DNA of 64,000 nucleotides from Planctomycetaceae bacterium (GTDB lineage Bacteria; Planctomycetota; Planctomycetia; Planctomycetales; Planctomycetaceae). The position numbers and the translations under genes were made by a program. Location of the stretch: assembly GCA_041940305.1 (NCBI GenBank), contig JBGTSJ010000007.1:1-64000 (forward strand). Direction: 5' to 3'. The notes beneath the pieces are model-generated. The model made no database searches and was not told where the DNA came from. It worked only from the letters and a program-made list of their open reading frames with translations. This document shows, piece after piece, positions 1,519 through 59,618 of this stretch (position 1 is its first letter; each line of letters opens with the position of its first letter).

Positions 1519-3444
1519 TTACTCCCCGCGACCCTGACCGGCGCCGCGGACCTGACCCGGCTGATAATAGTCGCCCGCCATCCACCGCACCACCATGTCC
1601 ATTTCGTGTTCGGTCAACTGCGTCCCGAACGCCGGCATGGCATTGCGCTCACCGTAGAACTCCGCCGGATCTGCAACAAACGCCCGCAGCCAGTTCACGC
1701 CTCCGTAGCCGGTCAGGGGCACATTGCCTCCGTAATCGAAGGCCATCTCGGCCTCCCCCCGCACATGTAGATCATGACAGTCGGCACACGCGCTAAACAT
1801 TTCTCCCTTGGTCAACGTCTCGTCGCCGGCAAACAGCGCTCGGCCGCGCTGGACCGTCTCGTGGTCCGGGGGCAGCGCGTCGGCGCGGCCGCTCTGGGCG
1901 TAGAGGAACTCTGTCAGCGCTTGGAAATCCTCCGCGTTCGCCGGGTCCTGCAAGGCGGCTGCACTTTCCGCCGACCACTCCGCCATCATTCCGGACAGCA
2001 CCTCGGTCGCGGCCTCGCGCGCTTGCGGATTCGCGTTCTCGTCGTTGGCGATGTTCTCCAGAGGAGCGAAATGCGTCTTGAAATCCAGCAGGACCGACTG
2101 AATCCACTCGCGGCTGCCGAACGTCACCTTGTCGCGCTGAACGAGGTCGGCCAGTTCCGGACCGCGCGGCTCCATCGCAAACTCCCCCTTCATCGATGCC
2201 GGCTGGTGGCAGTCGGCGCAGTACCGGCGAAACACGCGCGGCCCCTGTGTGAGCGGATCGTTCTTGAGCAGCTCGATCGCTCCCTGCGGAGGCACGCCGC
2301 TGGGGGACTGCGCCAGCTCAATGGCCCGCTCGCCGTCGATGTGCGCTTCCGTCACGGCGGCCCGGAACGCCCGGCCTTCTTCACTGTCGGCGAACCAGTC
2401 CTCGTAGATGGCCAGTCCCGTCAGGCCCCCCGCTCCCAGCAACATTAGAGACAAAAAGACGATGTTGAACGTGTGCCCCCCCTTGATCTTCGCCGTCAGC
2501 GGCATCAGCACCAGGATGCCCATCAGCGCTCCCGGGATCACCACGGCTCCGAACGCCTCTCCCAATCCCGTCACTTCCCCCGCGTGCGAGACCCACTCGA
2601 ATTTGAGGAATCGGAACAGGAACAGGTAATACCACTCCGGCCGCGCCGCCTCGTACTGCTCGGCGGCGTTGGCGGGGGCGGTGAGTTCGGCCCCCTTCCA
2701 GACGGCGAGGAACAGGACTGCTCCTAGCACCGCCAGACAGGCGATGCCGTCGCGGAGCACCTGGTCCGGCCAGAACGTGGAGTCCGGCGCCTTGAGCGGA
2801 TGCTTCACCGTGATGGCATGCCGACGAAACACATAAATATGCAGAAACAGGAACATCACCAGCAGCGCCGGCAGCACACCGGCGTGCAGCGCGAAGAACC
2901 GTGTCAGCGTGTGATGACCATACTCCGCGCCCCCCTGCGCCAGCTTCTGCACGGCCGGACCGACGACCGGCGTCGACCCCATGATCTCGGTCGCCACCTG
3001 CGTTGCGTAGTACCCCTTCTGGTCCCAGGGAAGCAGATAGCCGGTCAGCCCCAGACCCAGCACGATCTGCATCAACACCAGTCCCAGCCAGAAGTTCACC
3101 TCGCGCGGCGCCTTGTACGCACCGTCGATGACCACCTGGATCAGGTGGAACACGAGCAGGACCACCATGGCCTGCGCGGTGAAGTGATGGATCCCGCGGA
3201 TCAGCCATCCCAGGTGCATCTCATGCGACAGGTAATACACGCTCTCCCAGGCGGTCCGCGTGCTGGGGCTGTAGGCGAACCACAGCATGAAGCCCGTCAC
3301 CACCTGCACGAAGAACGTGAACACCAGCGTGCTGCCCCAGACGTAGCGCCACCGCGCGCCACCGGGGATCGGCTCGTCCAGTGCCTCTTTCATGAGGTCC
3401 CGGTAGCCGGTGCGATCATCGAGCCAGTTCAGAAGTCGTTTCAC
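1519..3444 (-). CDS. Cytochrome b (bc-complex type, qcrB/petB-like) fused to a C-terminal di-haem cytochrome c domain
   Basis: 641 aa. The N-terminal multi-TM cytochrome b core shows WGSTLVFTFFVQVVTGFMLWFAYSP...HHFTAQAMVVLLVFHL...GYLLPWDQKGYYATQV. The C-terminal domain carries two CxxCH haem-c motifs, CADCHQPASMKG and CADCHDLHVRG. Confidence 0.9.
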   Translation of the reverse strand: MKRLLNWLDDRTGYRDLMKEALDEPIPGGARWRYVWGSTLVFTFFVQVVTGFMLWFAYSPSTRTAWESVYYLSHEMHLGWLIRGIHHFTAQAMVVLLVFHLIQVVIDGAYKAPREVNFWLGLVLMQIVLGLGLTGYLLPWDQKGYYATQVATEIMGSTPVVGPAVQKLAQGGAEYGHHTLTRFFALHAGVLPALLVMFLFLHIYVFRRHAITVKHPLKAPDSTFWPDQVLRDGIACLAVLGAVLFLAVWKGAELTAPANAAEQYEAARPEWYYLFLFRFLKFEWVSHAGEVTGLGEAFGAVVIPGALMGILVLMPLTAKIKGGHTFNIVFLSLMLLGAGGLTGLAIYEDWFADSEEGRAFRAAVTEAHIDGERAIELAQSPSGVPPQGAIELLKNDPLTQGPRVFRRYCADCHQPASMKGEFAMEPRGPELADLVQRDKVTFGSREWIQSVLLDFKTHFAPLENIANDENANPQAREAATEVLSGMMAEWSAESAAALQDPANAEDFQALTEFLYAQSGRADALPPDHETVQRGRALFAGDETLTKGEMFSACADCHDLHVRGEAEMAFDYGGNVPLTGYGGVNWLRAFVADPAEFYGERNAMPAFGTQLTEHEMDMVVRWMAGDYYQPGQVRGAGQGRGE

Positions 3445-6779: not shown

Positions 6780-6929
6780 GAACAGGAGGAAACAGAGGCA
6801 ACGGAGATTCGTTGAGTGGGAAGCCGGCGGCGAATCCACCGCTGCATGAAGAGATAGTGCAAGCGACCAACCATTCGGCCTTGACGCGACAGACCCTCCT
6901 CCTCTGTTCCCTCCGTTTGCTCCTGTTCC
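6780..6929. repeat. Family-4 element: inverted pair of the same motif in the divergent isomerase/yqiJ intergenic region
   Basis: GAACAGGAGGAAACAGAGGCAACGGAG at 6780-6806 and CCTCCTCCTCTGTTCCCTCCGTTTGCTCCTGTTCC at 6895-6929. Each divergent transcript would carry the CU-rich version in its leader. Confidence 0.8.
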
Positions 6930-7105
6930 ACTTCCCCCAACCGCAAAATCGGCACGGACCTTCGAATAGTTCTCACCCGCAAACTTGCGTCCGCGGGTCG
7001 ATTTTTGTGATCCGATCGGACCGGGTTGCGTTTCCCCGGCGGACTGCCCGGAGGCGTGTTGCATATTGTCAACAGACCCAGGAGGGGGCGAAAGCGAGGC
7101 GGGCG

Positions 7106-7723
7106 ATGATGGATATTCTTCAGCAGTGGTTCTCGTGGCCGACACTGCCGTTCTCAGTGTTGTTGACGGCGGTAGTTGGCTACTGGCTGATGGTGATTGT
7201 CGGCGCGTTTGACCTCGACTTTCTGGACTTCGACCTGGACGTCGAACCCGGCCTGGACGGCCACGAATCGGTGTTTGACTGGGGCCTGGTCGGCCTCAGG
7301 TGGTTCAACCTCGGCGATGTGCCGTTGATGGTGTGGGTCAGCGCGTTCGCACTGCCGGCGTGGCTGGCATCGACCGCATTCGACAAGCGACTGGCGGACC
7401 CGACAACGCAGGAGATCATCGTCGCGGTGCTGCGGGACATCGGCATCGGCCTGGTGGCGGCGAAAGTCATCACCACGCCGCTGAAAGGCAAACTCAAACT
7501 GGTCGAGCCGAACCTCGTGGAAGACATGATCGGCCGGTCCTGCGTGATAACCAGCCTGCAGGCGACGCCTGACTTCGGACAGGCCCAATGTCAGGCCGAG
7601 GGAGCACCGTTAATGCTCAACGTCCGGGCGGTCGAGGGAGCGATCCCCAAAGGAGAACGAGCCGAAATCGTCGACTACTCCGCCGAACAGCGGGTGTACT
7701 TCGTACGCAGCCAGTCGGTTTAG
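7106..7723 (+). CDS. YqiJ-like inner-membrane protein with a C-terminal NfeD-type OB-fold (DUF1449-like)
   Basis: About 206 aa. It has N-terminal TM helices with an acidic loop (DLDFLDFDLDVEPGLDGHE) and a C-terminal beta-rich segment, GRSCVITSLQATPDFGQAQCQAEGAPLMLNVRAVEGAIPKGERAEIVD. The ATG at 7106 is preceded by GGAGGGGG. A flotillin gene follows immediately, matching the yqiJ-yqiK arrangement. Confidence 0.62.
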   Translation: MMDILQQWFSWPTLPFSVLLTAVVGYWLMVIVGAFDLDFLDFDLDVEPGLDGHESVFDWGLVGLRWFNLGDVPLMVWVSAFALPAWLASTAFDKRLADPTTQEIIVAVLRDIGIGLVAAKVITTPLKGKLKLVEPNLVEDMIGRSCVITSLQATPDFGQAQCQAEGAPLMLNVRAVEGAIPKGERAEIVDYSAEQRVYFVRSQSV

Positions 7724-7744
7724 AACCCATCACTGAAAAAGAGA

Positions 7745-7825
7745 GGCCACGGATGACGCGGATTGGACGGATTCACGCAGATCAGATCCGCGTAAATCCG
7801 TCCAATCCGCGTCATCTGCGGCCCC
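7745..7825. repeat. Family-1 palindromic element, copy A, 81 bp
   Basis: GGCCACGGATGACGCGGATTGGACGGATT-CACGCAGATCAGATCCGCGTA-AATCCGTCCAATCCGCGTCATCTGCGGCCCC, a near-perfect hairpin about 30 bp long between yqiJ-like and flotillin. Confidence 0.9.
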
Positions 7826-7879
7826 TTTGAAACGAATCAGCCAATCCCATCTCACGAGTTCTGACTCGGGCTTGAAACC

Positions 7880-9964: not shown

Positions 9965-9972
9965 TCGAAAGA

Positions 9973-10056
9973 GGGGCCACTGATGACGCGGATCTGGCGG
10001 ATTCTCGCGGATAGAATCTGCGTAAATCCGCGTCATCCGTACCATCTGCGGCCCCC
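9973..10056. repeat. Family-1 palindromic element, copy B (left boundary of GxxExxY cassette 1)
   Basis: GGGGCCACTGATGACGCGGATCTGGCGGATTCTCGCGGAT...AATCTGCGTAAATCCGCGTCATCCGTACCATCTGCGGCCCCC. Confidence 0.9.
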
Positions 10057-10073
10057 TTTGACGGGAGACTCCT

Positions 10074-10496
10074 ATGCCCAGCGACAAGCTCCTCCACGCC
10101 GACCTCACCGACGCGATCATCAAGTCGTTCTATCACGTCTACAACACGCTCGGCTTCGGCTTCCTCGAAAAGGTCTACGAGAACTCGATGGCAATCTCGC
10201 TGAGAAACGCCGGCCTGTTCGTCGTGCCCCAGATGCCGGTGGAGGTGTACTTCGAGAAACTGCGGGTCGGCACCTACTGCGCGGACCTGCTGGTTTCGAA
10301 CCTGGTCATCGTCGAGATCAAATCCGTCGAGAACCTGCACCCCGCACACGAGGCTCAGCTGATCAACTACCTGAAAGCCACTGATATCGAAGTCGGCCTG
10401 CTGCTCAACTTTGGCGAGAAACCTGAGTTCCGGCGCAAGGTTTTCAGCAACGAACGCAAGCAGCACCGAGTCGTCCCCAAAGGAGACCACGGATGA
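10074..10496 (+). CDS. GxxExxY family protein (PD-(D/E)XK nuclease-like fold)
   Basis: The motif G-F-L-E-K-V-Y-E-N is present. It is a paralog of ORF 56988..57449 with a shared core: ...ADL(I/L)V...V(I/V)VE(I/L)KS(V/A)E...HEAQL(I/V)NYL(K/R)ATDIEVGLLLNFG.KP...RKVF(S/T)N. The last codons (...VPKGDHG*) are encoded inside the right-hand palindromic repeat. Confidence 0.78.
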   Translation: MPSDKLLHADLTDAIIKSFYHVYNTLGFGFLEKVYENSMAISLRNAGLFVVPQMPVEVYFEKLRVGTYCADLLVSNLVIVEIKSVENLHPAHEAQLINYLKATDIEVGLLLNFGEKPEFRRKVFSNERKQHRVVPKGDHG

Positions 10497-10564
10497 CGCA
10501 GATGACGCGGGTTCTCGCTGATCCGCGAAAATCCGCCAGATCCGCGCCATCCGCGGTCCCCCCT
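10486..10564. repeat. Family-1 palindromic element, copy C (right boundary of GxxExxY cassette 1)
   Basis: ACCACGGATGACGCAGATGACGCGGGTTCTCGCTGATCCGCGAAAATCCGCCAGATCCGCGCCATCCGCGGTCCCCCC. Confidence 0.9.
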
Positions 10565-10567
10565 TGA

Positions 10568-34853: not shown

Positions 34854-34863
34854 GAGGCACGAA

Positions 34864-35094
34864 GGGGGTACGCAGATGACGCAGATGCAGAGGATTGACG
34901 CAGATGCTGCGCAGGTCTTGAAGGACGGCAGAAACACTAATAGCCGCTAATCTACGCTAATTCCTGCATGAGTGTCGATTAGCGGTGATTAGCGTTCCCC
35001 TCTTCGCTTTTTTTTCCATCCCGTCGTTCGCTGTCCGCCGTCACCTCTTGAAATCCGCGTCAATCCGCCCCATCCGCGTCATCCGCGGCCCCCC
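34864..35094. repeat. Family-1 palindromic element, copy E, 231 bp, with nested internal inverted repeats
   Basis: Arms GGGGGTACGCAGATGACGCAGATGCAGAGGATTGACGCAGATGC and GAAATCCGCGTCAATCCGCCCCATCCGCGTCATCCGCGGCCCCCC. The core carries CCGCTAATC...GATTAGCGG inverted repeats. It overlaps the last 11 codons of the PVC dehydrogenase gene. Confidence 0.9.
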
Positions 35095-38000
35095 TTCCCT
35101 CCACCCCCAGCGACTCGAGGTACGCCAACAGGTCGCGGAACTCCTGCACCGTCATCCGCTCCCACAGTTTCTCCGGCATCACCGACACCCGCTGCGGCAC
35201 CCGCTCCTCGATCTCATACGTCGAGATCTCCGTCGTCCGCCCCTCGCTGTCCCCCAGCACTGTCCGCCCCTCGTTCTCATGCACGATCATCCCCGTATGC
35301 ACCACGCCGTCCGTGGTCAGCATGTTCCACGTCGTAAACTGCGGCGACACGTCCTTGCTGGGCTCCAGGATCGAATCGATCAGCTTCTCCCGCGTAAAGC
35401 TCCGCCCCACATAAGATAAATCCGGCCCCACCCGCCCCCCGCGCCCTTCAACGGTGTGGCACTTGTAACAACCGGGCCCGTTGGGGTGATAGAACACGCG
35501 GCGACCGGAGGCGACTGGATCAATGCCGGTACTCGAGCGAAGCTCCTCGTAATCGGAGGTTACCGGCAACAGCTCGGCCTTCCAGACTTCGATACGCTGA
35601 GGACGTTTGCTCCATGCCTCCTCATACATGTTGAAGCGAGCGTCATCCGCTGGCGCTGCGAGATAAAGCTGCTCCAGCCACTCCTGCAGGCTCCATGGAT
35701 TGCCGGAGTAGGCGTTCAACGAGCCTGCCACTTCGTCGCGAATTCGCTCATCAGATCGCGAGAGCGGCCGGAGTGAGCGAATCGCCGCCATTGCGAAATC
35801 GAAGTCCGAGCGCAGGAACTCCGTCAGCGCGGCCGTGGCTGGCTGATTGCCGCCGCCTTGAGCCGCGATCTTGGATAAGCCGAGCATGGCTTCTTCCACC
35901 AGAGCTGAGTATCGCGAGCGGGCCAGGCTCAGTTCAGCAAACTCGGCTTCGCTCAGTTCATCAATGGCTGCGTCGCTGAGACCGGATTCGTCGAACGGAT
36001 CCGGCTGCTTCGCTACCTCAATCAATAGCCCCTCCACTTCTTTGAGCGGCGACTCGCACAGCGACCGTACCGTCTCCAGCCGCAGATCAAAGTCGTCGCT
36101 CGCCAGCAACGCTTTCCACACGTCGATCGTGAGTTGCGGATCATCCGCCTCCACCAGCCGCAGCGCCTGCACCTTCACCGCATCCGGCGTCTCGGCATTC
36201 GTCAGCAGCGGCACAACATATTTCCCGATCGGCGCCTGCTCAAACTCCCGCGGACTCCGCCCATCCAGCATGTCCAGCGCCGCGATCGTCGCCAGAAACA
36301 ACTCCGTCGTCATCGGCTCGCTGGTGAGCACCCCCTCCACCTGCGGCCGCAATTCGGAAAGCCCCTCTTCCGCCGCCCACTGGACCGCGATGCGTCGGAC
36401 CTCGGGATCAGTATTAGCAATTGCGATCCGCAGAAACTCGTCGTCCTCTGCAAACGCGCGCCGCACCGCCAGCACCAAGACACATCGTGATGCAGACGAG
36501 ATCTCTCCAAGTCGCCGCCTCACAATTTCATCGCCGAACGTACGAGGTTCTCGATTCGCAATCGCCATTCGAAAGTAGATCCTGAGTTCCTCCTTATCCC
36601 GGGCGAGCGAGTCCACGAGGGCCGATGCCAGATTCTGAGGAATCTGCTCACGCTGTAGCTGATGAATCCTGAGAGTGCGCGCCTGCTCAAGTGGATGGCC
36701 GCCGTTGGAAAAGAACGCGGCGACGCTTCGCGATTCCCATGATTCGTACTTATCTGGCAACGTAGCGTTCCTCGGCCAGAGGAGCATGTAGTTCCAGTCG
36801 CGGTAATCCCGCACAGGACATTGAGGCACGCGACCGATGACTCTCATCATAGCGGTGCGCACTTCGTCCAGGGGCCAATGGATCACATTGGACTCTGTGC
36901 CGGTAAACCCGTAGTCAAATTCCTCAATTGGAACTTGAACGGCCTGCCAGGCAGCTTCGACTCGAGCGCGTGCGCTTAACGAACCATCATTCAGGATGTC
37001 GCTCAGCTTCTCTCGACCGTCGGCAGTTCCTCGCAATTGTTTCGCCGCGAGGCGTCGCATCGTCAACTGCCGTGAATTGAGCATTTTCGCAAGTGTTCCA
37101 ACTTCCAGTTCCGCGGATCCTCCGTCGCCACCGGAATCTTCCTCAGGCCGGGTCGGCGGCGGCTTCCCGCTAAACGGCGGATCGACGGCGCTGATCCGCC
37201 ACACCCGCCCATGCCCGTGCAGGTTGTAGTCCCGCTTCACCCAGTCGGTGCAATACAGGCTGCCGTCCGGAGCAAGCGCCAGTCCCACCGGTCGGAAATC
37301 CTCACCCCCCACGACCAGCGGCTCCGCAATCGACTCGAACGACGCACCCCGCGGCTGCAGCCGGAACCGGTCGATCCGGTGATCCCCCCAACTCGTCACC
37401 AGCAGGTTGCCCAGATACTCCTCCGGAAACGCATCGTGCTCATACGCCACAATCCCGCTCGGAGCTTCCCCCGTCCCTGCCACCATCGGCAGCGTCCCCG
37501 GGATCTCCCCGTTCCAGGCGGTAAACGGATGCTGCCCCTTGCGGCCGTTGCGGAACTTGTACCCGTAGTCCCCCCCTTCGATGACATGCAGCAACCGGCA
37601 CGGCGGCCTGCTGTCCGGATCGTTATCAACCGTGAACAACCGCCCGAACGCATCCACGCACGAAGCATGCGGATTCCAGAACCCGGTCGCCCAGTGGGAG
37701 AGCTGCGTCCCATCCGGCCGCATGCGGTAGATGTTGCCCCCCTCGCCACCGCCGGTGAGGGCCAATGAGCCGCGACCGGAAGGGAGCGGCCCGTCGGTCG
37801 CACCGGCGTCGTCGTCAATTTCTAGGCCGCTTCCCGCCGGGCGCGGCTCTTTGAGCGACTCTCGACCAACAAGCGTGTAGTCCTCGCCCAGATTCTCCCC
37901 GAACCCGAAGTACATCCACCCCAGCGCATCAAACGCAAACCCCGCCAGCCCGTTATGCGGATAGTTCCCCTTCGTCTCCAGCCGCGCCAGCACCGTCTGC

Positions 38001-44217: not shown

Positions 44218-45924
44218 ATGAAAATGGGCAACAACCGGGCGCGGAGACCGTCCGCGCCGGCTTCCACTTGCCTGCAAGACGGGACGGCTGTCATGAGCGA
44301 GTTCCCCCAGTCGCAGCGGCTGCTTCAGCGGGTCATCTGGCGGATGTACGCCGTGCGGCTTGCCCGGCGCGTGTTCGTGTGGTTCGTCGTGGCGGCCACG
44401 CTGTATGCGATCGCGCTGCTCACCGCCCGGCTGACCGGGTTGATCACGGACGTTTTCGCGCCCGAGACGCTGTGGTTCATCCCCGCGGCCGCGGTGGTGC
44501 TGGGACTGCTCTCGACCCGCCGCCCGAGCCTGGAAGACGCGGCCCGCCGTACTGATACCGGCCAGGGAACGAAGGACCTGTTCCTCACGCTGACGATGCT
44601 TGACCGGTGCGCGGGCGAGTACAAGCCGCTGGTGGGCCGCGATGCCGAGCAGCGTGCCAAGGCACTGCACGCCGAGCAGGTTGTTCCGTTCGACTGGCAG
44701 AAGCCGTCGCTGCTGGGAGGGGTCGTTGCGCCGGCGACCATCGGCCTGCTGGCGCTGGGGATCTTCTTCCTGCCGTCGCTCGATCCGTTCGCGGTCCAGG
44801 CGCAGGCGAAAGAGGAAGCGACGCGCGCCGAGCGGCTGGCCGAGTCCCGCAAGGAGACGGAGGTCCGCCGCGCCCAGCTGACGCAGCGCAAGGAAACCGA
44901 CGACGAGAACTCGGAAGAGGTCGCGCAGGCGCTGGAGCGGCTGCAGGCGGACTTCCGCAAGATGCGCAAGGACCAGAAGATCCCCAACGCCGAGCGGCTG
45001 GCCGTGAATCAGAAGGACCTTGGCGAGAAGTGGCGGAAGCTCAACGCCGAGCAGCTCAAGCAGCTGATGAACTCGGAGAACCTCGACCAGCGGTTTGGCG
45101 GCGAGGACGCCGAGCAGTTCCGCGAATGGCAGAAGGAGCTGCAGCAGGGTTCGGCGGACGCGCTGGAGCAGGCGATGGAGGAACTGAAGGAAGACCTGCA
45201 GCAGCTGGCGAAGACGGATGATCCGGTCGAGCGCAGCGAGATGAAGCGGAAGATCGAGAAGCAGCTGCGCGAGATGTCGGAGTTCGCGGCGAACGAGGCC
45301 GGTTCGCCGCAGCTGGCGGCCGCGCTGCAGCGGGCGATGGACCAGATGGAGGCCATGCAGAACAGCGAATCCGAAGCGCTGGAGGCGGAAGCGCTGGCGG
45401 CGATCCAGGAGTCGATGGAGCTGGCGCAGATGGAGGCGCAGGAACTGGCTCAGGCCGCGCGCGACCTCCAGTCGCTGGAGGAGGCCCTCAATCTGATCAG
45501 CATGGCCAAGCAGCTGAACGCTGAGGAGATGCTGGACGGGGAGAGCGCCGAGGCCGCACAGTCACTGGCCGATTACGCCGAGATGTATGCGCAGATGATG
45601 GCCGACATGCAGGGGATGGGCGAACTCGGCGGCGAAGGATTCGGCGAGGGGGGCGAGGCGCCGGAGGATGAAACGGTCGAGACCGAGTTCGTCGACGAGA
45701 CTTCGAAGTCGGCGATTCAGAAGGGGAAGATCCTGCTGTCGATGAAGACGAAGGGGCTCAGCGACACGGGAGAGGCGGTGAAGGAGTACCGGGACGCCAT
45801 TGAAGACGTGAAGCAGGGAGCGGCCGAGGCCATCGAGCAGGAGGAAATTCCTCCCGGGTACATCGAGGCGATCCAGAAGTACTTCGACAAGATCGAGACC
45901 GTTGATGCCGCCGAGCCGCAGTAG
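44218..45924 (+). CDS. Membrane-anchored coiled-coil protein of unknown function
   Basis: Two N-terminal TM helices (VFVWFVVAATLYAIALLTARL and WFIPAAAVVLGLLST). A long E/Q/A/K-rich coiled coil follows, then an acidic C-terminus. Confidence 0.6.
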   Translation: MKMGNNRARRPSAPASTCLQDGTAVMSEFPQSQRLLQRVIWRMYAVRLARRVFVWFVVAATLYAIALLTARLTGLITDVFAPETLWFIPAAAVVLGLLSTRRPSLEDAARRTDTGQGTKDLFLTLTMLDRCAGEYKPLVGRDAEQRAKALHAEQVVPFDWQKPSLLGGVVAPATIGLLALGIFFLPSLDPFAVQAQAKEEATRAERLAESRKETEVRRAQLTQRKETDDENSEEVAQALERLQADFRKMRKDQKIPNAERLAVNQKDLGEKWRKLNAEQLKQLMNSENLDQRFGGEDAEQFREWQKELQQGSADALEQAMEELKEDLQQLAKTDDPVERSEMKRKIEKQLREMSEFAANEAGSPQLAAALQRAMDQMEAMQNSESEALEAEALAAIQESMELAQMEAQELAQAARDLQSLEEALNLISMAKQLNAEEMLDGESAEAAQSLADYAEMYAQMMADMQGMGELGGEGFGEGGEAPEDETVETEFVDETSKSAIQKGKILLSMKTKGLSDTGEAVKEYRDAIEDVKQGAAEAIEQEEIPPGYIEAIQKYFDKIETVDAAEPQ

Positions 45925-45965
45925 GGGCCGCGGATGACGCGGATCGGGGGGATTGACGCAGATCT
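45925..45965. repeat. Family-1 half-copy F (left arm only)
   Basis: GGGGCCGCGGATGACGCGGATCGGGGGGATTGACGCAGATC, located directly after the stop of the coiled-coil gene. No recognisable right arm is present. Confidence 0.8.
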
Positions 45966-46014
45966 GGACAGGGCGGCACGCGGGGACGCGGGTGACCGGC
46001 AGATCGTGGGGATC

Positions 46015-54600: not shown

Positions 54601-54752
54601 CCCGGCGCACCGCGGCCATCAAGCCCAAGTCGGGCGACGCGGCCGATGGCGGGCAGCGCTCCCCGACGTCCACCACACCGGGGAATACGACCACCAGCCG
54701 GCTGCTGGATATGAAGCGACGACGCCAGCAGGAGGGGGAGAAGGAGGAGTGA
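51663..54752 (+). CDS. Large membrane protein: BatA-like N-terminal double-TM, vWA domain, class-I-glutamine-amidotransferase-like domain, second vWA domain
   Basis: GTG 51663 overlaps the upstream stop (GTGA); ATG 51708 is the alternative. vWA MIDAS-like motif VVYALDISDSVGD. GATase1-like region ALLVTDPLG...DCVIFVNAPHDAF...GLGFLMVGGENSFG. Second vWA DEVGVLAYGAG...MIIISDGDPQ. Confidence 0.72.
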   Translation: MKIKRTLKSFVPSPRMKLRWTDALPLAIFLAVYAVVILLVDASKLLPEGFTARLPAGVVNALRTCEVVLFTRPVAFWLMAVTVWMWWMSLNGYSGLNRSRALTALLVRLTLVGVFVALIAEPRAVRTNDELSVVYALDISDSVGDATNKAADFIANSVSQKPPEDEAGLITFGSNAAVELPPQQSFPLEGGRLVLNSRINRDATNIEQALSLASAMIPEELRGRIVLISDGSETAGNLRQVLDELRSREITVDVLPISYSYDEEVWVERLELPQFVKIGEAYEASVVVSALQEGSGQLILEENGQEIAELEIDFQSGKNRYDIPLSIRAPGYYEYKAIIKPADAQDHLAENNEAVSYIYVEGEGKALLVTDPLGEQRDWQSLQQAIVEGERAVEVMDAYDFPRDPLSLMPYDCVIFVNAPHDAFDSVQLQALHDAVYNQGLGFLMVGGENSFGPGGYHRTVVEDVLPVSMDITKKKILPKGALAIILHTCEFPEGNTWGKRITKQAIKVLGEQDEVGVLAYGAGGEDWLFELTPAGEYEKLVPAINNAVIGDMPAFGPTMTNGLDALVKSDAATRHMIIISDGDPQPPDPPLVQRFIQEQVSVSMVAIFPHGGAEVSKMRAIASVTGGRYYFPADPNELPSIFIKEAKTLKRSMIQNEEIFPQSGFPSQVLDGIDAVPSLQGYVLTSLKETGPVEDILYTIPKDATEGETDPVLAVWRYGLGVTGAFTSDLSPNWGANWVGWEEYQAFVKQLLIRVSRVRKEGHLKLWSYTSGSEGIVMIEDFHPEEMFLDVVAQVGGPGEQTETVTLKQVGPRRYQASFPLWGKGRYQVMVLGKKGEREDRANGGFIVSYSPEYINFRSNWSVLEQIMQETGGTRLEPTATSEEIYNRRVPKQSSQPIFDWFLVALACLLPLDVAVRRVQLDWHTFKSMLGFDRRGESTQTMGALLARKKDVSSQLQRREERPLQTLAASTAYLREQQARRTAAIKPKSGDAADGGQRSPTSTTPGNTTTSRLLDMKRRRQQEGEKEE

Positions 54753-54763
54753 GGTCGGAGGGC

Positions 54764-54898
54764 AGAGGTCAGAGGTCAGAGGTCAGAGGTCAGAGGTCAG
54801 AGGTCAGAGGTCAGAGGTCAGAGGTCAGAGGTCAGAGAGCAGAGAGCAGAGAGCAGAGAGCAGAGAGCAGAGAGCAGAGAGCAGAGAGCAGAGAGCAG
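54764..54898. repeat. Heptanucleotide microsatellite: (AGAGGTC)x~10 followed by (AGAGAGC)x~9
   Basis: A perfect tandem tract of 135 bp lies between the stop of the vWA membrane-protein gene (54752) and moxR (54992). Confidence 0.95.
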
Positions 54899-54991
54899 AA
54901 CGCCGCTAACGCGGCGTGAATGCCGGGCCTAATACAGGAACGCAATTCGCAACACGCGTACCACCGATAACCGATTAGCCAATTACCCACC

Positions 54992-56005
54992 ATGCCCAAT
55001 AACTCCGCTGATCTTGACGCGCTCCAGCATGAAGCTGAGGACTTTCGTAAGACTTTTGCCGCCTGCCGGGCGGAGGTTGGCAAGTTGATTGTCGGCCAGG
55101 AGCGGGTTGTCGAATGCTCGCTGACGGCCATCTTTGCCGGCGGCAACGTGCTGCTGGAAGGTGTGCCGGGGCTCGGCAAGACGGAGCTGGTGAAGGCGAT
55201 GGGGCAGGTGCTGGACCTGGACTTCCGGCGGATCCAGTTCACGCCCGACCTCATGCCGGCCGACATCATCGGCACGAACATCATGCAGACGGATGAGCAT
55301 GGCCGGTATCAGTTCGAGTTCCGGCAGGGGCCGATCTTCACCCAGCTGCTGCTGGCGGACGAGATCAACCGGGCGACGCCGAAGACACAGTCGGCGCTGC
55401 TGGAGACCATGCAGGAGGGAACGGTCACCACGGCCGGCCAGCACTTCAAGCTCAAGCAGCCGTTCTTCGTGATGGCGACGCAGAACCCGATCGAGCAGGA
55501 AGGGACGTACCCGCTTCCGGAGGCACAGCTGGACCGGTTCCTGTTCAAGGTGGATGTCCCGTTCGTTTCGCGGCAGGAGATGAACGAGATCGTCAGCCGG
55601 ACGATCCTGCGGAAGTCGGTGCAGCTGGAGAAGCTGCTCGACTCCGAGCGGATCCTGCATCTGCGCAGCGTCCTGCAGAAAGTGGTCGTGGCGGACCCGA
55701 TCCGCGATTTCGCCTGTCGTCTCGTGCTGGCGACGCATCCCAACACCGATTTCTCGACCGAATCGGTGAAGCGGTTCATCCGCTGGGGAGCCAGTCCGCG
55801 GGCGGCGCAGTCGCTGATCAAGGCGGCGCGGGTGCGGGCGCTCAGCCAGGGACGGGCCCACGTCGCGTTCGACGACATCCGTCACTTCGCCGACGAAGTC
55901 CTGCGGCACCGCACGCTGCTCAACTATGACGGCCAGGCGGAGAACGTGGTGGTGGGGGATCTCATCCGGGAATGCGTGACGGCACTGCCGGAACAGGCGG
56001 CGTAA
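54992..56005 (+). CDS. moxR: MoxR-family AAA+ ATPase
   Basis: GQERVVECSLTAIFAGGNVLLEGVPGLGKTELVKAMG...LLLADEINRATPKTQSALLETMQEGTVT...PFFVMATQNPIEQEGTYPLPEAQLDRF. Confidence 0.92.
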   Translation: MPNNSADLDALQHEAEDFRKTFAACRAEVGKLIVGQERVVECSLTAIFAGGNVLLEGVPGLGKTELVKAMGQVLDLDFRRIQFTPDLMPADIIGTNIMQTDEHGRYQFEFRQGPIFTQLLLADEINRATPKTQSALLETMQEGTVTTAGQHFKLKQPFFVMATQNPIEQEGTYPLPEAQLDRFLFKVDVPFVSRQEMNEIVSRTILRKSVQLEKLLDSERILHLRSVLQKVVVADPIRDFACRLVLATHPNTDFSTESVKRFIRWGASPRAAQSLIKAARVRALSQGRAHVAFDDIRHFADEVLRHRTLLNYDGQAENVVVGDLIRECVTALPEQAA

Positions 56006-56062: not shown

Positions 56063-56956
56063 ATGTCGACGACTCAATTCACATCGCTGTTGCCGAACGA
56101 CGTACTGGCCCGTGTCGAGCGGATGCGGCTGAATCCGGTGCGGCGGCAGACGAACCGGATGCGGGGGGAGCATCTGTCGTCGAAGGGGGGGACCAGCATC
56201 GAGTTCGCGGACTACCGCGATTACGTCCCCGGCGACGACATCCGGTATGTGGACTGGAACATCTTCTCGCGTCTCAATCACCCCTATCTCAAGCTGTTCG
56301 CGCATGAGGAGGAGATGCACGTGGTGCTGATCCTCGATGCCTCCGCGTCGATGCAGTACGAGGGGAAGTTCGAATTGGCGCGGCAGGTGGCGGCGGCGCT
56401 GGGGGTGATGGGGCTGATGAACGTGGAGCGGGTGAGCGTGTACTCGTGCGCCTCGCTCAATAAGGAACCGGTGATCCTGCCGCCGGTCACCGGCCGCGCG
56501 AGCCTGCAGCGGTTCCTCAAGTTCCTGGAGAAGCTGGACGGGGGCGGCGAGTTTCCGGTGGAGAAGGCGATCGAGGAGATCCTCAAGCGGCATCGCGGGA
56601 AGGGAGTGGCCGTGGTGCTGTCGGACTTCCTGACGTTCGGCGACATGACGCGGCCGTTCAACATGCTCTTTAACGGCGGCCTGGAGATTTACGGGCTGCA
56701 GATCATGGGGCCGACCGAACTCGATCCCGAATTGACGGGAGACCTGCGATTCATCGATTCCGAAACGCAGCAGACGCTGGATGTCTCGTCGGTGGGCGAA
56801 CTGATCGGCATCTATCACGAGCACCGGATCGCGCTGGAGACGCACCTCTCGGCCGAGTGCCGCAAGCGGAGCGGGCGGTTCGTGTCGGTGTCGTCGAGCG
56901 AGCCGATCAAGACCGTGCTGTTTGACACACTGCTGCGACGCGGGTGGGTGCGGTAG
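56063..56956 (+). CDS. DUF58 (vWA-like) protein, MoxR partner
   Basis: IEFADYRDYVPGDDIRYVDWNIFSRLNHPYLKLF...VVLILDASASMQY. The canonical moxR-DUF58 pairing. Confidence 0.85.
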   Translation: MSTTQFTSLLPNDVLARVERMRLNPVRRQTNRMRGEHLSSKGGTSIEFADYRDYVPGDDIRYVDWNIFSRLNHPYLKLFAHEEEMHVVLILDASASMQYEGKFELARQVAAALGVMGLMNVERVSVYSCASLNKEPVILPPVTGRASLQRFLKFLEKLDGGGEFPVEKAIEEILKRHRGKGVAVVLSDFLTFGDMTRPFNMLFNGGLEIYGLQIMGPTELDPELTGDLRFIDSETQQTLDVSSVGELIGIYHEHRIALETHLSAECRKRSGRFVSVSSSEPIKTVLFDTLLRRGWVR

Positions 56957-57489
56957 GGGATAACGGGACGCAGTTGAACGCAGATGAATGGGGATTTCCG
57001 CAGATCAGGAAAGGAAGAGTGGGGCAATGGTGGGCGAGACCGATGATCTGCACTCGGAAGTGACCGGTGAAGTTATTGGCGCGTTCTACCATGTCTACAA
57101 TGCACTCGGTGAATCGGTATATCAGAATGCACTTATGTTGACGTTGCGCAAGCGAGGGTGTCTGGTGGAGGTGCGACAGGCTGTCGATGCGCGGTTTGAA
57201 GGCGTCATTGTTGGAGAATACTTCGCAGACCTGATCGTGAACGGGGTGGTGATCGTCGAGCTGAAGTCAGCGGAGACGTTGTGCGACGCTCATGAGGCGC
57301 AACTCGTGAACTATTTGCGTGCCACCGATATTGAGGTCGGGCTGCTACTGAACTTTGGACCCAAACCGCAGGTCAAACGCAAAGTTTTCACGAACGCACG
57401 AAAGCGCCGTGATTTGGCACCCTCGCCATCAGACTTGCTGCCCTCCTGATCTGCGACAATCCAGTTGATCTGCGTCCATCTGCGTTCCC
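56957..57489 (+). mobile_element. Second repeat-bounded GxxExxY cassette, inserted between the DUF58 and batA-like genes of the MoxR operon
   Basis: Left arm GGGACGCAGTTGAACGCAGATGAATGGGGATTTCCGCAGATC at 56957-57007. Right arm GATCTGCGACAATCCAGTTGATCTGCGTCCATCTGCGTTCCC at 57448-57489. These are imperfect inverted repeats and a divergent version of family-1 arms. Confidence 0.5.
56988..57449 (+). CDS. GxxExxY family protein (PD-(D/E)XK-like), paralog of 10074..10496
   Basis: It shares a core with the other paralog: ADLIVNGVVIVELKSAETLCDAHEAQLVNYLRATDIEVGLLLNFGPKPQVKRKVFTNARK. The probable start is the internal MVGETDD... at 57027. Confidence 0.75.
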   Translation: MGISADQERKSGAMVGETDDLHSEVTGEVIGAFYHVYNALGESVYQNALMLTLRKRGCLVEVRQAVDARFEGVIVGEYFADLIVNGVVIVELKSAETLCDAHEAQLVNYLRATDIEVGLLLNFGPKPQVKRKVFTNARKRRDLAPSPSDLLPS

Positions 57490-57509
57490 TCTTCCGATCG
57501 ACGATCATC

Positions 57510-59426
57510 ATGTCCTGGTTGCCTGGGTTTTCGGCGTTGTGGGGGGCGTGGCTGTTTTTGCTGCTGATCCCGCTGCTGATTTTTTACTTTCTGAAGCTGA
57601 AGCGGCCGCGGCTGGAGATTGCTTCGCTGGCGCTGTGGCGGCAGGTGATCAGCGATCAGCGGGTGAATTCGCCGTTCCAGAAGTTCAAGAGGAACCTGCT
57701 GCTGCTGCTGCAGATCATCATCCTCACGCTCATCGCGCTGGCGGCGATGCAGCCGTTCATCCGGGGGGAAGCGGCGCGGTCGGAGTATCTGCCGATCCTG
57801 ATCGACACTTCCGCGAGCATGGCGGCGATCGACGAGGAGACCGGCCAATCGCGGCTGGACCTCGCCAAGGAAGAAGTCCGCGAGATTATCGAGGGGATGC
57901 TTCCCGGCCAGCAGATCACGCTGATCGCGGTGGGCTCCACGGTCCGGCGTCCGACGGAGTTCACGGACAACAAGCCGCTGCTGCTGTCGGCCCTCGACGG
58001 CATCGAGGCGTCGGACGTGCCGAGCCGGTTCGAGGACGGGCTGCAGGTGGCACAGGCGCTCACGCGGACGTTCGCGATCGACAAGGTGCGGCTGTATTCG
58101 GACGGGAACCTGCCGACGCGTCCGACCCCCACCGGTCAGCACGTGGCGGCGGTGGACTTCGACCTTTCGTACCAGCTCGAGTTCTTCCAGCTGCCGCCGG
58201 CGGGGCGGAATATGGGGATCACGGCGCTCAATGCCCGGCGGCGGTCGGTGGATGAATGGCAGATCTTCGTGCGGGTCGAGGCGGCGGAGGCGGCGTCCGT
58301 GACGGGGCAGGTCGAGCTGCTGCTGAACGGGCAGCCGCTGGGTGCACCGGAACCGGTCGTGCTCGACCCATCGGAGTCACAGCGGCTGGAGTTCGCCGTG
58401 AGTGCGCGGGAGGCGGCCTTCCTGGAAGCGCGGCTGAAGGTGGACGGCCACGATTCGCTCGAGTCGGACAACGTCGCGTTTCTGGAGCTGCCGGTCGGTC
58501 GCGAACTACTGGTGTACTGCGCGACGAGCCTGGCGACGTACCGGCATTCGCTGTCGGGGCTGGAAGGGCTGATCATGGAACCGAGCCCGCAGGGGGAGGA
58601 AAGCCTGTCTTCGTACGATCTGGTCATTACGGACACGCTGGACGATCTGTCGAAGGACTCGACGACCTACTTCTTCGTGGGGGTCATTCCGGCTGATTTA
58701 AGAGAATTGATCACCGTGCAGACCGATCTGGCCGAAGTGGTGGACTGGAAGCGCGACGCACCGTTGCTGCAGCACGTGCAGCTCAAGGAAGTGCAGATCT
58801 CCGATCTGCCGAAGCGGCAACCGGACGTGGAAGACGGAGACTTTGAGGAACTCGGTTACGAACTGCTGGCGTTCGGCAACGAGGGGCCGTTGATTGTCCG
58901 AAAACGGGACGGCCGCAAGCTGCTGTATTACTTCCTGTTCCACACGGACCGGTCCACCCTGCCCTATCGCGTCGGCTTTCCGATCCTGGTCCAGAACGTG
59001 GTGAACGAGGCGCTGCAGCAGGCATCGCTGTCGGAACTGAGCGCGATGACGACCGGGATCCTGCCCCCGCTGCGTGTCGAGGGAAACTCCACTTACCGCG
59101 TGACGACGCCCAGCGGCGAGTCGATCGAGGCCACGACGGGGGAGAACGGCCTGCTGGAGGGGATCCCGGCGGGCAAAGTCGGCGAATACGAAGTGCGGCA
59201 GGGAGGGAATGTGGTCCGGCGATTCGGCGTCGGGCTCCTCAATTCGACCGAGTCGTCGCTGGTGGGGGTGGACGAAATTCAGTTCCGCGAGATCAAGGTG
59301 GCCGCCGAGGAGGAACGGCTCAAAACCGACAAGCCGCTGTGGACGACGCTGGCCATCGTGGCGTTCAGCGTGTTGATGATCGAGTGGTGGTATTTTCAGA
59401 AGAAACCCGCCGGGATGCCGAACTGA
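57510..59426 (+). CDS. BatA-like protein: N-terminal double-TM anchor plus a vWA domain
   Basis: MSWLPGFSALWGAWLFLLLIPLLIFYFLKLKRP...LLLLLQIIILTLIALAAMQPF (two TM helices). vWA motif LPILIDTSASMAA. A C-terminal TM helix. An upstream TTG at 57465 is the alternative start. Confidence 0.78.
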   Translation: MSWLPGFSALWGAWLFLLLIPLLIFYFLKLKRPRLEIASLALWRQVISDQRVNSPFQKFKRNLLLLLQIIILTLIALAAMQPFIRGEAARSEYLPILIDTSASMAAIDEETGQSRLDLAKEEVREIIEGMLPGQQITLIAVGSTVRRPTEFTDNKPLLLSALDGIEASDVPSRFEDGLQVAQALTRTFAIDKVRLYSDGNLPTRPTPTGQHVAAVDFDLSYQLEFFQLPPAGRNMGITALNARRRSVDEWQIFVRVEAAEAASVTGQVELLLNGQPLGAPEPVVLDPSESQRLEFAVSAREAAFLEARLKVDGHDSLESDNVAFLELPVGRELLVYCATSLATYRHSLSGLEGLIMEPSPQGEESLSSYDLVITDTLDDLSKDSTTYFFVGVIPADLRELITVQTDLAEVVDWKRDAPLLQHVQLKEVQISDLPKRQPDVEDGDFEELGYELLAFGNEGPLIVRKRDGRKLLYYFLFHTDRSTLPYRVGFPILVQNVVNEALQQASLSELSAMTTGILPPLRVEGNSTYRVTTPSGESIEATTGENGLLEGIPAGKVGEYEVRQGGNVVRRFGVGLLNSTESSLVGVDEIQFREIKVAAEEERLKTDKPLWTTLAIVAFSVLMIEWWYFQKKPAGMPN

Positions 59427-59446
59427 GGCGTAGGTCAGGGAAACAA

Positions 59447-59586
59447 GGCCGCGGATGACGCGGATCCGGCTGGTCTTCGCGGAGAACAAGAACGTCATGG
59501 ACCAGCGGTAATCGGCCGGCCACAAATCTCACCCCTGTCTGGATTCTGATCCGCGGAAATCCGCCTGATCCGCGTCATCCGCGGCC
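59447..59586. repeat. Family-1 palindromic element, copy H, 140 bp
   Basis: GGCCGCGGATGACGCGGATCCGGCTGGTCTTCGCGGAGAAC...GATTCTGATCCGCGGAAATCCGCCTGATCCGCGTCATCCGCGGCC. It lies between the batA-like stop and the next gene. Confidence 0.9.
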
Positions 59587-59618
59587 TCCTTTCACGTCGT
59601 TCGCAATCACCCCTTCCT

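Follow-up and report, generated by a model that had tools for sequence, protein, structure and literature searches.

A GxxExxY gene between inverted arrays of a 10-bp motif is an old, vertically inherited insertion in the moxR operon of a Planctomycetaceae subclade

RESULTS

A small nuclease-like gene between inverted arrays separates the DUF58 gene from batA

The window analyzed here is a stretch of 64,000 nucleotides (nt) from a Planctomycetaceae bacterium (GenBank assembly GCA_041940305.1, contig JBGTSJ010000007.1, positions 1 to 64,000 of the forward strand) with a GC content of 64%. It contains four co-directional genes on the + strand that encode a 1055-amino-acid (aa) VWA protein, MoxR, a DUF58 protein, and a BatA-N/VWA protein. 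The last two of these genes are separated by a spacer of 553 nt with a single real open reading frame (ORF) inside, and this spacer is occupied by the feature under study, a 532-bp unit that consists of a small nuclease-like gene between inverted arrays of a 10-bp motif (Table 1). A preliminary description of the window had already placed a unit with its own ORF at 56957-57489, between the DUF58 gene (stop 56956) and a batA-like gene (start 57510); both gene calls were confirmed, and the limits agree almost exactly with where the inverted arms end. On its left side, the element begins 1-2 nt past the DUF58 stop codon, and the BatA start, ATGTCCTGG, is kept among orthologues. Neither a sigma70-like promoter nor an intrinsic-terminator-like site was found in 56800-57650, and a search against Rfam at the gathering threshold gave no match in the window.

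The boundaries of the unit are formed by two pairs of inverted repeats, an outer one (56958-56988 / 57465-57495, 31 nt, 77% complementary) and an inner one (56992-57010 / 57444-57462, 19 nt, 89% complementary), and the flank-to-flank inverted-repeat score of the cassette is 46, compared with 21.6 for the 95th percentile of shuffled flanks. Each arm is built of four units of the ACRCRGAT type at 10-nt spacing, one of which is degenerate. The consensus of the left arm among orthologues is GGAACGCAGATGACGCAGAT, from which the window copy differs by three changes, and the window left arm agrees with the family consensus aaTaGaACaCnGATgAcaCnGAT. The right-arm consensus is ATCTGCGTCATCTGCGTTCC, and here the window copy carries one 1-nt insertion. 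At 56976-56978 and 57475-57477, each arm has gained 1 nt between units 1 and 2, which moves the spacing from 9 to 10 nt; this pair of gains could be a symmetric (compensated) change in spacing or a coincidence. We defined the element as an ORF between at least two inward-facing ACRCRGAT units per side at 9-10-nt spacing, and the window cassette has this structure. There is no target-site duplication at the ends of the window copy. An integron gene cassette was considered by eye and set aside: the ends read GTTCC and GTTCTATT, which differ from GTTRRRY, and the cassettes lie dispersed and do not form an array.

Table 1. Coordinates of the junction cassette, its neighbor genes, and the other members of the repeat family in the window
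Feature	Position	Strand	Remarks
moxR	54992-56005	+	PF07726, E 5.8e-63
DUF58 gene, upstream neighbor	56063-56956	+	PF01882, E 7e-33; stop TAG 56954-56956
Left arm	56958-57012	+	Terminal GGATAACGGGAC, then ACGCAGTT (56968), ACGCAGAT (56978), ATGGGGAT (56988, degenerate), CCGCAGAT (56998)
Purine-rich spacer just before the ATG	57013-57026	+	GGAAGAGTGGGGCA; possible ribosome-binding region of the cassette ORF
GxxExxY / PDDEXK_3 ORF, 140 aa	57027-57449	+	PF13366 and TIGR04256 profile matches
Right arm	57444-57489	-	Overlaps the ORF stop codon; ATCTGCGA (57449), ATCCAGTT (57459, degenerate), ATCTGCGT (57468), ATCTGCGT (57478), then TCCC
Residual native spacer before batA	57490-57509	+	45% identity among orthologues; no terminator or promoter consensus found
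BatA-N + VWA gene, downstream neighbor	57510-59426	+	PF07584, E 2e-10; PF13519, E 3e-12
Cassette 1, with a second GxxExxY gene (10074-10496)	9971-10565	+	54% protein identity to the junction cassette; co-directional neighbor genes
ORF-less hairpin	7741-7829		Four units, 3-nt loop, four inverted units
Element directly downstream of batA	59446-59589		CGCGGAT-type left and right arms around about 100 nt of non-coding DNA
Nested element	34863-35097		Left arm (ACGCAGAT type) and right arm (ATCCGCG type), 184 nt between
Lone left arm GGGGCCGCGGATGACGCGGATCGGGGGGATTGACGCAGAT	45923-45966		No right-arm partner nearby; directly upstream of an apparent gene start

The cassette protein is a predicted PD-(D/E)XK nuclease with a damaged signature

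The ORF of the cassette matches the PF13366 (PDDEXK_3) profile with an expect value (E) of 2.5e-32 (112.1 bits against a cut-off of 22) and the TIGR04256 (GxxExxY) profile with an E of 1.6e-30 (105.9 bits against a cut-off of 35). The orthologue alignment and the public gene calls place its start at ATG 57027 rather than at the upstream ATG 56988. Just before this start, the purine-rich stretch at 57013-57026 is a possible ribosome-binding region for the cassette ORF: purine-rich GAAGAAGG or GAGG stretches stand at the same place in the orthologues, while the sequence of the spacer varies (36% identity). The core residues E29, D68, E78-x-K80, and Q92-x3-Y96 correspond to a RecB/Cas4-type PD-(D/E)XK active site; in an alignment of 48 sequences, D68, E78, K80, and Q92 never vary, and the conservation of E29 and Y96 reaches at least 90%. 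A 12-nt in-frame deletion in the window ORF removes 'YGFL' from the G-F-L-E-x-x-Y signature, leaving L-G-E-S-V-Y, in which the G and E are adjacent and the E and Y are kept, so that the window copy lacks the G-x-x-E-x-x-Y signature and is the only one among the 48 aligned members without the nearly invariant G-F-L.

The AlphaFold2 model of the protein has a predicted local distance difference test score of 86.5, and its Foldseek matches, at template-modelling scores of about 0.4-0.5, are the lambda-exonuclease-like LHK-Exo, MGME1, the AdnAB nuclease domains, Cas4 SSO0001, and Hjc resolvases. The predicted fold is that of a PD-(D/E)XK nuclease. Sequence searches of the PDB and of PHROGs gave no match to the cassette protein. 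PADLOC returned only marginal Cas4 matches (E about 0.005-0.008); therefore, the protein does not belong to a recognized defense system. The only Pfam family found in the cassette is PF13366, and the Y1/HUH transposase family PF01797 is not among the matches. The sole functional note that we found on the family is its listing in a 2012 survey of PD-(D/E)XK proteins, where the function is given as 'Unknown' (PMC3424549). Six database proteins of about 250-270 aa (P0307-P0311 and P0321) contain two tandem GxxExxY domains, and this arrangement suggests that the functional unit may be at least a dimer.

The cassette was inserted once and has been inherited vertically since

The orthologous operons were compared at 13 loci taken from GTDB species genomes with the DUF58 protein as query, and further loci were reached through the closest homologues of the cassette protein. 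The DUF58 orthologues of loci L001-L018 are 58-94% identical. In six of them (L002, L004, L005, L006, L008, and L012; DUF58 60-71% identical), the DUF58 stop and the BatA start overlap or lie at most 70 nt apart, and none of these six empty junctions holds a remnant of an arm; in L007, L009, and L010, the operon is broken after DUF58, which makes these loci uninformative on the junction. Because the two genes abut or overlap in six outgroup Planctomycetaceae, the cassette is an insertion. The statement in the preliminary description that DUF58 and batA are normally adjacent is borne out by these six relatives, and a gene at the junction is not a universal part of the orthologous operons.

A GxxExxY gene is present at the junction in every locus whose DUF58 protein is at least 86% identical (L016, L014/L015, L003, L017, L018-L020, and L001). 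All seven clade members are thus occupied: the window, five with orthologous cassettes, and L001 with a non-orthologous one. The four best database homologues of the cassette protein (P0002, P0004, P0005, and P0006; 70-76% identity) are all encoded at the DUF58-BatA junction between the same arms, and all homologues above 70% identity lie at the orthologous locus, so that, among the loci and database homologues compared, near-identical copies at several loci were not observed. A neighbor-joining tree of DUF58 plus BatA, which is unrooted, places all carriers together in a single clade, within which L001 branches as sister to the others. Among the cassette ORF orthologues, we measured 0.60-0.81 synonymous differences per site, which is saturated, and a ratio of nonsynonymous to synonymous divergence (dN/dS) of 0.07-0.10, compared with 0.05-0.11 for DUF58 and 0.12-0.26 for BatA. 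In the same genome pairs, the synonymous divergence of the cassette ORF exceeds that of DUF58 (0.39-0.62) and BatA (0.45-0.61); this excess could stem from a weaker codon bias, from a locally raised mutation rate, or from occasional exchange with paralogues.

The synteny in all close relatives, the saturation of synonymous sites, and the lack of a near-identical copy elsewhere together identify an old, fixed, vertically inherited insertion. The cassette was inserted once, before the Planctomycetaceae subclade diversified, and has been inherited vertically under selection since then. We hold this anatomical and evolutionary part of the account with high confidence. The preliminary description had gone further and taken the insertion as direct evidence that the cassette is mobile, which overstates the case: the close relatives are all occupied, the homologues at 70-76% identity all sit here, and synonymous sites are saturated.

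The protein and the outer arms are under purifying selection

Mean pairwise identities in a six-way DNA alignment of the orthologues show where the constraint lies. The outer 20 nt of each arm (GGAACGCAGATGACGCAGAT / ATCTGCGTCATCTGCGTTCC) are 90-96% identical, codon second positions are 92% and third positions 46% identical, and the spacers outside and inside the arms are 29-45% identical. Purifying selection therefore acts on the protein and, equally strongly, on the outer 20 nt of both arms. Two of the copies have a lesioned ORF, namely the window (12-nt deletion, four arm changes) and L003 (several frameshifts, five arm changes), whereas the four intact orthologous copies have zero or one arm change. 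Although this comparison of two lesioned with four intact copies is a small sample, it fits an ORF and arms that would depend on each other and decay together. With a signature short of four residues and four arm changes from the clade consensus, the window copy is probably weakened or dead.

The same architecture surrounds most sampled GxxExxY genes

The GxxExxY family is large, with more than 7,800 matches at E <1e-10 in a database clustered at 90% identity and 10,299 representatives of 50%-identity clusters at E <=1e-3, tandem two-domain fusions included. We examined the flanks of the gene in a sample of 80 metagenome loci with GC contents of 30-62%. The flank inverted-repeat score has a median of 37, compared with 16 when flanks are shuffled and 20 when they are paired across loci, and about 65 of 76 loci, as read from the score list, exceed the shuffled 95th percentile. 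Across the sample, the arms consist of units that read approximately A-C-R-C-N-G-A-T, two to four per arm at 9-10-nt spacing. Their outer end is approximately AATAGAAC; this terminal consensus is common to the family, and the arrays end in about (A)ATAGAAC. The number of units is 2.65 for an upstream flank (+ strand) and 2.88 for a downstream flank (- strand) over a background of 0.47, an enrichment of about six-fold with strict polarity.

The layout left arm-ORF-right arm is dominant (34 of 78 loci), and about 24 further loci carry additional complete hairpins, either on one side or on both, as does the second cassette of the window described below. The gaps from left to right arm are bimodal, with one class of 0-120 nt in ORF-less hairpins and another of 380-800 nt where an ORF is enclosed. 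Both neighbor genes run in the direction of the ORF in 37 loci, and in 4 the ORF is antisense to both, as counted by a crude longest-ORF rule. Variation among the units (CAC/CGC; CAGAT/CGGAT/CTGAT) does not correlate significantly with GC content (rho 0.22 and 0.17). Some database proteins have N- or C-terminal tails that by eye resemble translated arms ('MTRIWRI...' and '...IRENPPDPPDPR').

Matches to the family are nearly absent from mobile-element records: there are none in 50,697 phage records and six in 72,556 plasmid records, all of the latter non-mobilizable, which indicates that the family is not cargo of classical mobile elements. In the 80 GxxExxY loci, Rfam at the gathering threshold gave no match, and none of the loci lies in an rRNA gene. 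The architecture thus surrounds most of the GxxExxY genes sampled across very different genomes. Searches by family names and repeat strings, in a literature whose coverage was incomplete, found no description of the periodic arrays, the arm-ORF-arm layout, the co-orientation, or the persistence; the protein family is known and named, while the architecture of its flanking arrays is apparently undescribed, although a prior description is possible.

Related cassettes and hairpins are dispersed in the window

The window contains a second GxxExxY gene, here called cassette 1, as well as several ORF-less members of the repeat family (Table 1). Cassette 1 is bordered on each side by a complete left-right hairpin (9971-10059 and 10483-10565) rather than by single arms, and its synteny extends to L106 (91% protein identity) and L107 (77%). 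In L107, the upstream hairpin of cassette 1 has about 70 nt of extra interior, and in L106 (1605-1808), it is followed by a 67-aa ORF without a Pfam match, which stands before another right arm.

The position after batA varies among relatives. Where the window has CGCGGAT-type arms, L016 has an element with CGCAGAT-type arms and an unrelated interior, and L014 shows, by eye, no more than a possible degenerate remnant. The interior of the element at 34863-35097 holds a nested hairpin of a different unit (CGCTAAT / ATTAGCG), and pairing of its arms would leave A-C mismatches on the + strand and G-U ones on the - strand.

The junction and the other spacers of the operon are recurrently occupied

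The cassette at the L001 junction is a different member of the family. Its protein is 55-60% identical to the orthologue group, within which identities are 75-88%, and is no closer to that group than random family members from other phyla are (mean 59.5%); its closest database relatives are 61-67% identical, and its arms consist of ACGGAT-type units. A 53-nt direct repeat, 96% identical between its copies (6891-6943 and 7441-7493), includes the last DUF58 bases, the stop codon, and the left arm; its two copies stand on either side of the ORF plus right arm of this non-orthologous cassette. The L001 cassette either replaced an earlier one or was inserted independently at the same site as a second event, and the direct repeat could be the footprint of cassette entry at arm-bearing sites. 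At the same junction, L011 has a DUF4058 gene (PF13267, E 4e-59; 1991-2752), and L013 has a 330-bp inverted-repeat element without an ORF (2915-3245). The DUF58-BatA junction is therefore a recurrent landing place.

Passengers also occur elsewhere in the operon. DUF4058 (PF13267) genes stand between MoxR and DUF58 in L014 (2198-2983) and L016 (793-1557); these two inserts and the one in L011 are without ACRCRGAT arms. Every spacer of the operon hosts a small passenger gene (DUF4058, Y1_Tnp, or GxxExxY) in some lineage, and the Y1_Tnp genes found elsewhere in the same operon of relatives have different, REP-like flanks; in L017, a Y1_Tnp gene lies further upstream. In the window, the spacer between the gene for the 1055-aa VWA protein and moxR is filled with tandem 7-nt arrays (54751-54899 and 54900-54935): GAGGTCA about 12 times, then about eight copies of GAGAGCA as read by eye (TRF merges the run as GAGGGCA), then CGGCGTGAATGCCGGGCCTAATACAG. 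The latter string looks like the right end of a cassette with a REP-flanked Y1_Tnp gene (RAYT-like, PF01797) that sits in the same spacer of L014 (559-894); the window spacer seems to keep only a relic of such a cassette. Unrelated intergenic hairpins built of tandem short units were also seen in L013 (2915-3245), L010 (3595-3690), and L007/L009 (about 6960-7020), with TCGCAAC/TCGAAAC, GTCAGT-type, and GTAGGGCCGGTG... units. Hairpin arms made from tandem short units appear to be a general habit of Planctomycetaceae genomes.

DISCUSSION

The junction cassette combines a conserved nuclease-like gene with conserved terminal arrays, and we propose that the one acts on the other. The cassette gene would be expressed by read-through as part of the host operon, since it is co-oriented with its neighbors and has no promoter or terminator consensus. 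Its protein would bind the periodic arrays of units and nick or cut there; the fused-dimer forms and the presence of one unit per helical turn make it probable that it would do so as a dimer or higher oligomer. Binding or cutting of the arrays would explain both the conservation of the unit across phyla and the joint conservation and decay of ORF and arms. Where a site already bears arms, the nuclease activity may from time to time lead to the copying or replacement of arms and cassettes, as L001 suggests. Such a system would behave like REPIN-RAYT with a different enzyme and not like a hopping insertion sequence. Action of the protein on the arms is a proposal to which we give somewhat less than an even chance. 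For the package as a whole, a persistent REPIN-RAYT-like element built on a PD-(D/E)XK nuclease, we regard the odds as evenly balanced.

REPIN-RAYT systems consist of short palindromic repeats and the Y1 transposase gene that they flank (PMC5581495; 10.1101/2021.07.10.451892; 10.1101/2022.05.22.493013). The GxxExxY element shares with them an enzyme gene between inverted copies of a short repeat that is also dispersed as intergenic hairpin doublets, which in the window lie at 7741-7829, 9971-10059, 10483-10565, and 59446-59589. It is likewise chromosomal rather than plasmid- or phage-borne, and it persists for long at fixed loci by vertical inheritance while purifying selection acts on its gene, both cassettes of the window being syntenic past synonymous saturation. 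It differs in its enzyme, a PD-(D/E)XK nuclease of 130-140 aa instead of a Y1/HUH transposase; in the many diverged gene copies per genome instead of one, with two diverged copies within 64 kb here; and in arms that are periodic arrays of 9-10-bp units instead of a single REP hairpin with a GTAG box. Any mobilization of the repeats by the GxxExxY nuclease is hypothetical.

Several other systems share part of these properties. The intervening sequences of 23S rRNA genes (S23p of Coxiella and Leptospira; PMC4990558) are also about 0.4-0.7 kb long, carry a small ORF of unknown function within inverted-repeat bounds, lie in the sense orientation inside a transcription unit, and persist vertically. 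In contrast to these, the GxxExxY element is not in rRNA, has an ORF of another family, and shows no RNA-strand signature in its mismatches. Transposons with terminal inverted repeats and miniature inverted-repeat transposable elements resemble it in subterminal repeats that look like binding sites and in having ORF-carrying and ORF-less classes with the same ends; they differ in that the GxxExxY element has no target-site duplications, no DDE or other recognized transposase, and no near-identical copies, and its loci are stable. Free-standing homing endonuclease genes include the Seg and Mob genes of phages and the gene of the PD-(D/E)XK enzyme I-Ssp6803I. Like them, the cassette is a small nuclease gene wedged between conserved host genes, with a sporadic distribution and with replacement or decay; unlike them, it has its own conserved terminal arrays, and its ORF is maintained long after fixation. 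At the protein level, the predicted fold and the E...D...ExK...QxxxY active-site layout would ally it to the Cas4, RecB, and lambda-exonuclease nucleases, whereas its domain is minimal, lacking both an Fe-S cluster and accessory domains, no CRISPR context surrounds it, and the PDB contains no match to its sequence.

Several of our results weigh against the proposed element. No recent transposition was seen, no near-identical copy was found in another context (the paralogues in the window are 51-54% identical), and inspection of the 16 best-preserved elements of the sample revealed no target-site duplications. The arms could be conserved for a host factor or an RNA structure instead, the argument from joint decay comes from six copies, the count of orientations used a crude rule, and the nuclease-arm mechanism is pure inference. 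Finally, whether the event at the junction was a gain or a loss formally depends on the root of the DUF58+BatA tree, and on the unrooted tree, a single loss is as parsimonious as a gain.

The last point opens the way to a reading without any insertion, in which the gene was ancestral to the operon and was cleanly lost in the other lineages. Presence and absence do split the unrooted tree into two groups, and one loss would suffice if the root fell on the branch between them. However, the empty group is far more diverse and includes named genera (Thalassoglobus and Planctomicrobium), it has overlaps of stop and start codons, and it retains no arm remnants; terminal repeats belong to the unit itself, which is found in unrelated contexts throughout the family, and a different family member sits at the site in L001. 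Three of these points, namely how diverse the empty group is, the overlaps of its codons, and the terminal structure that the element has of its own, lead us to prefer gain and to consider ancestral loss highly improbable. We give still less credence to the reading of the preliminary description, a currently active mobile cassette that hopped recently into the operon. The insertion relative to outgroups, the two cassettes within 64 kb, and the terminal inverted repeats speak for it; against it stand the orthologous cassettes in all close relatives, the closest homologues at the same junction, synonymous saturation, paralogues of 51-54% identity, the lack of target-site duplications, and the lesions of the window copy itself.

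The main rival to the nuclease-arm element is one that acts at the RNA level: the arms would pair in the operon transcript into a stem enclosing the ORF, with cutting by RNase III or hiding of a ribosome-binding site, and would be kept for mRNA processing or regulation of DUF58/BatA rather than for a transaction on DNA. The minimum-free-energy folds of the window and L014 cassettes do pair the left with the right arm (z -4.1 and -4.8), the strong co-orientation with neighbor genes implies that the sense transcript matters, and the Coxiella and Leptospira intervening sequences, which are also ORF-bearing and bounded by inverted repeats, are cut by RNase III (PMC4990558). A stem maintained in the transcript is, however, at odds with the mismatches: about 19% of arm positions are mismatched, and they show no sense-strand G.U bias (99 sense-compatible and 112 antisense-compatible, p = 0.41). 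Moreover, what is conserved across phyla is a specific unit at helical-turn spacing, beyond complementarity, and the sampled loci have no Rfam family match, with 0 of 80 within an rRNA gene. Since the G.U bias is missing, we did not take the RNA-stem model as primary, and we judge it unlikely. A free-standing homing endonuclease, which would cut empty REP-like hairpins of the host and be copied into their loop by repair from a filled copy, we likewise consider unlikely. It would account for the ORF standing at the loop position of ORF-less hairpins and for the bimodal arm gaps, for the replacement at the arm-bearing junction of L001, and for the L003 pseudogene and the window lesion, which fit the decay phase of a homing cycle. 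PD-(D/E)XK is, in addition, a known homing-endonuclease fold (I-Ssp6803I). Yet purifying selection on an ORF at a fixed locus past synonymous saturation is unusual for a fixed homing gene, the arms beside the gene are the most conserved part, and close relatives show no filled/empty polymorphism. The gene may instead have been domesticated for a useful role in the cell, such as DNA repair or defense, with arrays that serve as cis-regulatory operators or insulators and have no role in mobility today. The long vertical persistence with dN/dS <0.1, the synteny of cassette 1, the near absence from plasmids and phages, and the weak Cas4-like matches point in this direction. The many diverged copies per genome region in unrelated contexts, the ORF-less hairpins scattered through intergenic DNA, and the pseudogene in one lineage do not; an insertion that splits translationally coupled operon genes is more suggestive of opportunism than of a designed locus, and the PADLOC matches are marginal only. 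Domestication therefore appears to us quite improbable.

As for the operon itself, BatA is full length and under purifying selection in all carriers, even though the ancestral tight or overlapping junction is broken. From this and from the absence of a terminator-like site in the cassette, it follows that the cassette is tolerated, as the preliminary description had proposed; the polarity on batA that it had considered possible is, at least in a strong form, unlikely, also given that the family is co-oriented with its neighbors. For the moxR operon, the cassette is an old tolerated passenger and not a sign of recent rearrangement.

A single old cassette in one operon is a modest finding, and its value is as an entry point to the family-wide pattern. 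The GxxExxY family gains a candidate substrate, the ACRCRGAT arrays. For genome annotation, the pattern offers an explanation for the small ORFs that repeatedly interrupt operons in Planctomycetota and other phyla, for spurious N- and C-terminal extensions that look like translated arms ('MTRIWRI...' and '...IRENPPDP'), and for short intergenic hairpins. In its widest and most tentative form, which we think rather more doubtful than probable, the PF13366/GxxExxY genes (about 10,000 clusters at 50% identity), their ACRCRGAT arms, and the ORF-less hairpins would be an unrecognized class of persistent intragenomic replicators found across phyla: a PD-(D/E)XK counterpart of REPIN-RAYT, in which a nuclease expressed inside host operons reads arrays with helical-turn spacing. 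If true, this would add a second enzyme class to the vertically persistent 'replicators' of bacteria.

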